This document shows, in pieces, positions 3,688-4,607 of a DNA stretch of 64,000 nucleotides. The DNA is taken from assembly GCA_963827755.1 (NCBI GenBank), contig CAWHCQ010000037.1, positions 1-64,000 of the forward strand. The letters are read 5' to 3'. Below the pieces are notes generated by a model, which was not told the DNA's origin, made no database searches, and saw only the letters and a list, made by a program, of their open reading frames with translations. Source of the stretch: an uncultured Gammaproteobacteria bacterium (lineage in GTDB: Bacteria; Pseudomonadota; Gammaproteobacteria; UBA9214). Position 1 is the first letter of the stretch. Every line of letters starts with the position of its first letter. The position numbers and the translations under genes were made by a program.

Positions 3688-3722
3688 ATCGACTCATGCA
3701 GGGCTTGAAAAGGTAATTGATT

Positions 3723-4607
3723 ATGATGCGAATAGCACTGTTTCTGGCGACCAATGCGGCCATCCTGGTCCTGATCAGCGTGGTCTTTCAGGCCCTTGGG
3801 ATCGAGGGTGTTCTGGCCGAAAACGGGGTGGACCTGAACCTGCAGGCCCTGCTGGTGATGTCCGCCGTCATCGGTTTCAGCGGTTCCTTTATCTCGCTGG
3901 CCATGTCCAAGTTCCTGGCCAAGCGGTCCATGGGTGTCAGGCTGATCGAACAGCCGGCCAGTGAAGCCGAGCGCTGGCTGGTGGACACGGTGAAGCGCCA
4001 GGCGCAGATGGCGCGTATCGGCATGCCGGAGGTCGGTATCTTCGACTCGCCGCAGCCGAATGCCTTTGCGACCGGCATGCGGCGCAACAATGCACTGGTT
4101 GCCGTGAGCACCGGCCTGCTGCAGCGCATGAACAGTGATGAGGTCGAGGCGGTGCTGGCCCACGAGATCACCCATGTCAGCAACGGCGACATGGTGACGA
4201 TGGGTTTGATACAGGGCGTGGTGAATACCTTTGTGATCTTCCTTTCGCGCATCATCGGTCATGTCGTTGACCGGGTCGTGTTCAAGACCCAGCGCGGTTA
4301 CGGTCCGGCCTATTACATCACCTCGATTGTCGCCCAGGTGTTTCTGTCCTTCCTCGCGTCAATGATCGTGATGTGGTTTTCACGCCGGCGTGAATTCCGC
4401 GCCGATGCCGGGGGCGCCTCGCTGGCCGGGCGTGAAAAGATGATCAGTGCCCTGCAGGCCCTGCAGCGGGAAAGTAAGCCGCATGATCTGCCGGGTGAAT
4501 TTGCGGCCTTTGGGATTTCCGGTGGACTGGGCAGCGGCATCAAGAAGCTGTTTATGACCCATCCGCCGCTGGAAGTGCGCATTGCAGCCCTGCGGGCGGC
4601 TGCCTGA
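3723..4607 (+). CDS. htpX: Protease HtpX
   Basis: [29 protein letters not shown] (HExxH); [17 protein letters not shown]. Confidence 0.95.

Follow-up and report, generated by a model that had tools for sequence, protein, structure and literature searches.

In collaborative homing, a free-standing endonuclease gene homes together with a neighboring intron, and engineered trans-splicing ribozymes of the group I type combine a guide sequence, a catalytic core and an attached 3′ exon. Collaborative homing has been described in phages, namely for F-CphI at psbA and for mobE with I-TevIII (PMC6083498, PMC2790892, PMC3984707). Introns in the T loop of tmRNA are documented (bioRxiv 10.1101/2020.01.27.920355), and 883 intron-form tmRNA sequences are known, with position 7 of the T loop as the main insertion site (PMC11915505). 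The main text of the latter paper places endonuclease genes only inside the introns, i.e., after P9 or in P7.1, in 36 of the 883 sequences, and the strings "downstream" and "duplicat" do not occur in that main text. The same database paper describes large internal deletions, as well as artefacts of the deletion-or-misassembly type, in tmRNA genes of metagenome-assembled genomes. Finally, tmRNA pseudogenes that lack one end, and tmRNA fragments that arose from island integration, are documented (PMC4131195).

The locus described here lies in a window of 64,000 nucleotides, i.e., positions 1 to 64,000 of contig CAWHCQ010000037.1, from an uncultured member of the Gammaproteobacteria. The assembly to which it belongs (GCA_963827755.1; hereafter G000) consists of 52 contigs with a total of 2.85 Mb, and is 91.8% complete with 5.4% contamination. 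The locus shares with intron-form tmRNA genes the insertion point, the U at position −1 paired with a G, the omega G and the 17-nt 3′ exon; the corresponding gene of a relative from the same genus, G024, is an ordinary member of that class. It differs from such genes in that the 5′ exon and the promoter are gone, and because of this loss splicing would be unable to rebuild the T arm. It also differs in that the endonuclease gene is located outside the intron, 3′ of the exon, whereas the main text of PMC11915505 has such genes inside only.

Like the documented pseudogenes and island fragments (PMC4131195), the locus is a 3′-terminal piece of ssrA without the rest, and its distal part (2850-2828) resembles an island-end fragment in the genome G004 (L043). 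Unlike those fragments, however, the proximal piece carries a whole intron, and the 0.5 kb that is missing extends to the spacer, which is not what an integrase crossover leaves; no integrase gene was found among the ORFs scanned in positions 1-2828. As in the collaborative homing of phages, the endonuclease gene is outside the intron and next to an intron-bearing gene, and the intron would shield the target. In contrast to the phage cases, the gene concerned is a bacterial chromosomal RNA gene, the enzyme is of the LAGLIDADG type, and there is a private short 3′ exon with a terminator. The likeness to engineered trans-splicing ribozymes is formal only, since neither a target RNA nor a promoter nor evidence of a junction is found here. 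Since T-loop introns and tmRNA pseudogenes are both documented, we regard the G000 locus as a beheaded intron-form ssrA of a known kind. With a probability of roughly 65%, it is a real deletion allele at the native ssrA locus, perhaps one that goes back to a mis-repaired homing break.

Organization of the ssrA remnant

The divergent neighbor of the remnant is htpX, which encodes an M48 peptidase on the plus strand (3723-4607; Pfam Peptidase_M48, 135.1 bits) and begins with an ATG at 3723. All other elements of the locus are on the minus strand. Next to htpX, 30 nt of residual htpX-ssrA spacer (3693-3722) align with the htpX-proximal spacer of G012, a relative whose ssrA is intronless, including CATGAGTCGA, and run up to the junction. 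At the junction there is a TCGA (3689-3692) that, according to the alignment, is common to the spacer, as in G012, and to the T loop. This TCGA and the T that follows it (3688) double as the last five bases of the 5′ exon strand of P1. The next element is a complete group I intron of 272 nt (3416-3687), which belongs to the T-loop type of tmRNA introns and is inserted at loop position 7, as judged by homology and by a full-length alignment to RF00028 (28.7 bits).

The intron is followed by a proximal 3′ exon of 17 nt (3399-3415), which is a 100% match to positions 370-386 of the G012 tmRNA and comprises the last base of the T loop, the 3′ half of the T stem, the 3′ acceptor strand and ACCA. 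Of 20 homologues, 19 have exactly this exon, and L038 differs from it in a single base. Immediately 3′ of it, a terminator scan identified an intrinsic terminator hairpin (3370-3393) of 10 pairs with a T-rich tail; its stem is maintained in G024 via a compensatory change, and comparable hairpins come after the CCA in related loci. A free-standing, single-motif LAGLIDADG homing-endonuclease gene of 144 codons (2916-3350; assigned with Pfam) is located outside the intron. Its product matches PF14528 (LAGLIDADG_3) with 30 bits, where the cut-off is 22.5, and PF00961 (LAGLIDADG_1) with 25.1 bits, where the cut-off is 23.1. The motif reads YIAGLIDGEG and is closed by an acidic residue, and the best solved relative of the 144-aa protein is I-MsoI (E 2.1e-7).

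Beyond a spacer of 65 nt, a second, intronless copy of the tmRNA 3′ end is found (2828-2850), i.e., 23 nt from the T loop to the CCA that match positions 364-386 of the tmRNA at 100%. It is continued by the native downstream flank of ssrA (2639-2827), with 72% identity to the sequence that abuts the intronless ssrA of G012, over 217 nt if the 23-nt end is included. Because this native flank is attached to it, the distal copy is the displaced original 3′ end. Beyond the flank, an ORF for a Gp49-like protein (DUF891; 1837-2166, plus strand) overlaps an ORF without Pfam match (2127-2492, plus strand), and the two are possibly a toxin-antitoxin pair. The gene for the protein partner of tmRNA, smpB, is also in the window (11814-12242, minus strand; PF01668, 198.8 bits), as an open frame of 163 aa without stops.

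Immediately 5′ of the intron, the minus strand of G000 reads CATGAGTCGAT from 3698 to 3688, where relatives carry GCGGGTTCGAT. That is, the 5′ flank of the intron is TGAGTCGAT (the sequence in the candidate 5′ exon position is also given as GAGUCGAU) and not GGGTTCGAT, and the T stem-loop is not rebuilt by exon ligation. The initial annotation of this sequence, which had described an orphan intron with a 5-nt exon match next to htpX, was correct: only TCGAT matches the T loop, and htpX is 30 nt away (3693-3722). The remnant is unable to make tmRNA, as it has neither a promoter nor a 5′ acceptor strand, nor does it retain the tag frame or the part of the T stem that belongs to the 5′ exon.

Position of the breakpoint

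In G012, G003, G024 and G033, ssrA adjoins htpX in divergent orientation; synteny in close relatives had been put forward in the initial annotation as a way to examine the locus, and it holds for all four. In the spacer of G012, CATGAGTCGA is as far from htpX as it is in G000. In G012, CATGAGTCGA is followed by a conserved promoter-like block and then by the 5′ end of the tmRNA, while G000 joins CATGAGTCGA straight to the intron. The distance from the spacer TCGA to the T-loop TCGA in G012 is 496 bp, made up of 132 nt of spacer and tmRNA positions 1-364; this stretch contains five TCGA sites, of which the first and the last are the joined pair. Homology of G000 to every intron-bearing relative begins exactly at 3692, the T of TCGAT, and the right-hand break coincides exactly with the intron insertion site, which speaks for a real deletion. 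The adjacency of htpX and the presence of the native flank after 2850-2828 therefore identify this as the native ssrA locus and not as a site of ectopic intron insertion. The initial annotation had put forward three options with no preference among them, one being a deletion or recombination at TCGAT; this is the option that the comparison with relatives bears out, and the best of the three. As a rough estimate, 4-5 nt of microhomology would be expected at about 2% of random joins, and its presence here suggests that the join is a product of recombination. Repeats within the locus measure only 17-23 nt.

To place G000 among related loci, two sets were compared. Among 21 loci found through the endonuclease gene, with G024 and G058 counted, GGGTTCGAT is directly 5′ of the intron in 19; as for the remaining two, the contig of L037 begins too late to show this part, and L040 lacks an exon match. 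A class-wide sample was drawn through the intron itself, which was found in 18 of 399 other genomes; of 18 loci examined in this sample, 15 have the tmRNA body and the 5′ half of the T loop in place, and the other three are cut by contig ends. Taking the two sets together, which may overlap, the tmRNA body is retained by each of the 34 related copies whose 5′ flank can be seen. Among the genome representatives examined, only G000 has a 5′ flank that is foreign.

A metagenome contig, L072, is the sole record in the JGI metagenome collection to match a pattern that excludes the native flank. Its intron copy is 94% identical to that of G000 over the 94 nt that are visible before the contig ends inside it; where the T stem would be expected, GGTCGAT is found, and TCGAT is as far as the homology to the T arm goes. 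L072 is an independent case of an orphan copy that breaks at TCGAT, in an unrelated assembly. On the same contig (positions 2265-2848), an intact intronless ssrA directly follows smpB, with the orphan intron copy 115 nt further on. The sequence 3′ of ssrA in L072 seemed to resemble the spacer of G000, but blastn gave no confirmation and this likeness was dropped.

Search for a tmRNA body in the assembly

The initial annotation had seen neither a tmRNA 5′ end nor a tag frame in this region, and the searches agree: over the window, ARAGORN and Rfam at gathering threshold found no tmRNA, the sole match being a tRNA-Leu. The genome-wide search that had been suggested there was equally negative for all 52 contigs. 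RF00023 gave only tRNA-sized matches under the cut-off, ARAGORN reported no tmRNA, permuted forms included, and blastn with the tmRNAs of two relatives found no body but only the 3′ fragments at 3415-3399 and 2850-2828. The 5′ acceptor strand and the tRNA-like 5′ segment (GGGGGCG...) are absent from the window and from the 52 contigs, and the tag reading frame (ANDDNYALAA in relatives) is without a body match in G000. What is present is the 3′ end of the tmRNA (3′ half of the T stem, acceptor strand and CCA), with 17 of 17 bases as in relatives. In control searches, ARAGORN found the standard tmRNAs of G012 and G003 and missed the intron forms of G024 and G058, and RF00023 detected the intron-form body of G024 with 174.8 bits. 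The assembly contains no second copy of window positions 2500-4700, contigs shorter than about 4.6 kb not being part of the bin; as the genome is 91.8% complete, sequence missing from the assembly could include a second ssrA.

When the other 36 genomes of the genus were searched, a tmRNA match over the cut-off was obtained in 26. Among the ten that have none, contig ends are found beside htpX, at the expected place of ssrA, in G019, G033 and G004; htpX too is missing in G030, and in G031 the htpX-like gene has another neighbor. We saw in these contig ends, the absent htpX and the altered neighbor no sign of recurrent tmRNA loss in the genus, and that idea was abandoned. In G004, an isolated 3′ fragment of ssrA without a body, of the island-end type, extends from the T loop to just short of the CCA (L043, positions 1160-1186, contig C109).

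Integrity of the intron

The Rfam model Intron_gpI aligns over its full length (model positions 1-253) to 3697-3425 of the minus strand with 28.7 bits (E 2.7e-5), a score below the RF00028 gathering score of 50. The intron of G000 is 90% identical to the one within the intact ssrA of G024, in which the order is tmRNA body, intron and identical 17-nt exon; the same order is found in G058, from another family. In an alignment of 20 homologues, the consensus fold has 69 predicted pairs, and compensatory changes occur at 31 of these. We therefore conclude from the homology to the G024 intron and from the covariation that this is a genuine group I intron, for which self-splicing is predicted.

No decay is apparent in the G000 sequence. 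All 66 pairs within the intron and the 3′ exon are standard. At 116 columns that are unanimous among the other 19 sequences, G000 has three differences, all of them in the 5′ exon (alignment columns 1, 3 and 4), and at the 113 remaining unanimous columns it has no private change. The U-G pair at the 5′ splice site (P1, alignment columns 9-20) is found in all 20 sequences, G000 included, in agreement with the Rfam drawing, and the omega G in its context (...CTG|TCCCGCC) is likewise shared by all 20. The intron interrupts the T loop behind its sixth base, TTCGAT|T, i.e., at T-loop position 7. The intron, the 3′ exon and the endonuclease gene are all undecayed, and from the state of the intron it follows that the event was recent, or that it is an artefact.

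Backup rescue and quality of the assembly

An ArfB-type release factor is encoded in G000 and in all five relatives tested, which suggests that a loss of tmRNA would be tolerable. In G000, the frame of arfB (contig C44, 69805-70134) is shifted by an additional base immediately ahead of the conserved basic tail, and the shifted frame still encodes that tail up to the shared stop. Were this break real, no rescue system would remain. ArfA (PF03889) gave no match in G000, a result that is uninformative because the model is short and the genome incomplete. That tmRNA is nearly universal, and that smpB is intact here, counts against a real loss.

The frame break in arfB led us to test the quality of the assembly. 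Among 181 orthologue-like ORFs from 400 kb of G036, 30 correspond to two or more frames in G000, some of these ORFs being antisense shadows. In the reverse test, 18 of 149 are broken in G036, and because G036 breaks too, the rate has no clean control. Most frame breaks in G000 are outside homopolymer runs, and the consensus of both genomes looks rich in indels. An M90 peptidase gene is split at window positions 733-1486; this split, like the break in arfB, is probably a consensus error and not gene decay.

Records of sequencing reads were also consulted. In each of the 24 runs listed, at most 0.53 of the sampled words occur. For four of them (X1, X3, X4 and X5), Logan contigs were compared with positions 2700-4300 at 85% likeness, and none bridges 3688-3700. 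Those that come from the htpX side cease to match at about 3701-3710, and the one long intron-side contig, with 35 differences (record 25 of X5), stops at 3692, with 35 further letters unlike the window. Because these contigs belong to relatives and not to the source, they are no evidence either way on the junction. The junction pattern has no match in metagenome_contigs or genome_contigs, from which the genome of the window itself is possibly left out.

Origin of the orphan intron

To assess whether the junction formed in the cells or in the assembly, the two have to be weighed against the same observations. An artefact, of which misassembly had been another option of the initial annotation, would mean that the organism has an intact, intron-bearing ssrA like that of G024, and that a stretch of 0.5 kb was dropped in assembly or polishing, or that the contig derives from one chimeric molecule. 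Frame-breaking indels are abundant in this consensus (30/181), with arfB and the M90 peptidase at 733-1486 among the affected genes; yet one-base indels differ in kind from a clean 0.5-kb loss. Deletions and misassemblies in tmRNA genes of metagenome-assembled genomes are on record (PMC11915505), the intron, smpB and the endonuclease gene are undecayed as if nothing had happened in vivo, and the junction occurs in no independent record. On the other hand, a microhomology of 4-5 nt is far under any assembler overlap, and the repeats in the locus measure 17-23 nt; no alternative copy or body fragment is found in the 52 contigs, those below about 4.6 kb being outside the bin; and L072 has a comparable orphan junction at TCGAT in an unrelated assembly. 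We thus consider an artefact improbable, though it is the rival that deserves the most weight, and infer that the deletion happened in cells and arose by microhomology joining.

Two further explanations were considered. If the intron had entered a GUCGAU beside htpX by reverse splicing or another non-homing route, ssrA would never have been there; G000 and L072 do both have GTCGAT 5′ of the intron, where the guide pairing is one base longer than with the native TTCGAT. This is very unlikely nonetheless, given that the 3′ side continues not into the spacer but into the ssrA 3′ exon, the terminator, the endonuclease gene and the displaced native end with its flank, that htpX-ssrA adjacency is the rule in relatives, and that the missing part is exactly spacer plus body. 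The initial annotation had also entertained a trans-splicing ribozyme, in which intron and 3′ exon would replace the 3′ end of a tmRNA made elsewhere. The intron is indeed complete, its guide pairs with UCGAU, and the correct 3′ exon is attached, with the omega G. We regard such a device as scarcely credible all the same: neither a tmRNA body nor any separate target RNA was found in the assembly (91.8% complete), the promoter-like block is part of the deleted stretch, and a scan of the minus strand in 2700-4100 gave no promoter-like site. Moreover, the product would merely exchange a 3′ end for an identical one, and in all 34 relatives whose 5′ flank can be seen the intron is an ordinary cis intron. 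The preserved pairings from which continued selection had been considered are there, with 66 of 66 intron pairs standard, but a recent event suffices to account for the undecayed state and selection is not needed.

On the preferred reading, the native locus has undergone two events. In the first, a composite mobile element would have entered the T loop of ssrA; besides the group I intron and the external LAGLIDADG gene, this element comprises a terminator and a 17-nt 3′ exon copy of its own; the original 3′ end and its flank would thereby have been displaced downstream, to 2850-2639. In the second, about 0.5 kb would have been lost between the TCGA of the spacer and that of the T loop, and with it the promoter-like block and tmRNA positions 1-364. 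Judged by its sequence, the gene has lost the promoter-like block and about 95% of its length, and the remnant looks dead, not like a trans-splicing device.

The deletion might itself have originated in a break made by the endonuclease at the center of the palindromic T arm and then subjected to repair. The T arm is near-palindromic, i.e., stem, TCGA-centered loop, stem, with the intron insertion point one base beyond the TCGA. Because its best solved relative is I-MsoI and it has a single motif, the enzyme presumably acts as a homodimer and recognizes a site that is nearly palindromic. If the left end of such a break were lost back to the next usable TCGA, microhomology joining would yield the exact junction of G000, and this route would account for a break that falls at the intron boundary. 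The two TCGAT strings could also be joined by plain replication slippage, with an identical product, but its position would then be a coincidence. If a TCGA-specific process acted, the coincidence is mild, as the T-loop site is one of four TCGA downstream of the spacer site in G012. A fuller version of this proposal, which we consider doubtful, is that the junction is the scar of a wrongly repaired homing break: an I-CreI/I-MsoI-like homodimer would cut the T arm at TCGA, and the ends would at times be joined at another TCGA and not by homology, leaving orphan modules of intron, 3′ exon and endonuclease gene in G000 and L072; in G000, a free-living bacterium, the only tmRNA gene would thereby have been destroyed, with life on ArfB alone.

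On its own, the locus amounts to a single metagenome-assembled genome with a truncated tmRNA gene. If reads were to confirm the deletion, it would be a natural and recent loss of tmRNA in a non-reduced genome of 2.85 Mb, with smpB intact. It would then also link a homing element to the destruction of its host gene.

An endonuclease gene external to the intron

The position of the endonuclease gene after a private copy of the 3′ exon may matter more than the deletion, and would be a chromosomal example of collaborative homing. A literature search that combined collaborative homing and tmRNA gave only phage and general papers, and among these an external endonuclease gene at tmRNA was not found. 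There are 20 relatives of the LAGLIDADG protein at 48-70% identity, and 17 of these are encoded just downstream of a tmRNA body, on the same strand. Starting from the intron instead, 19 loci can be compared: a full-length LAGLIDADG gene is within about 100 nt 3′ of the exon in nine, a partial or split one is present in five, one locus is cut by a contig end, and four have none. The enzyme may cleave the intronless target site-specifically, a putative activity. An external gene of this kind could explain why tmRNA introns scored as endonuclease-bearing are rare.

Other members of this subfamily (L023-L039, L041 and L074-L091) likewise have an external LAGLIDADG gene, at a distance of up to about 100 nt 3′ of the terminator and the 17-nt exon. 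After the endonuclease gene, a second intronless copy from T loop to CCA is seen in L034 (about 3444-3472), L079 (about 2282-2307) and L084 (about 2082-2107). Such second copies consist of 6-9 nt of the 5′ side plus the 17-nt exon, and are diverged or partial in L024, L030 and L035. One genome, G237, has two intron-bearing 3′ parts of ssrA, each with a full-length LAGLIDADG gene (L080 on contig C5 and L091 on C44). The latter is cut inside the intron by the contig end, and may represent a second copy, an orphan or contamination. Halalkalibacter, of the Bacillota, also has relatives of the endonuclease, with 48-50% identity (L040 and L042). In L042 the tmRNA body is on the opposite strand just after the endonuclease gene, a layout unlike that of the gammaproteobacterial loci.
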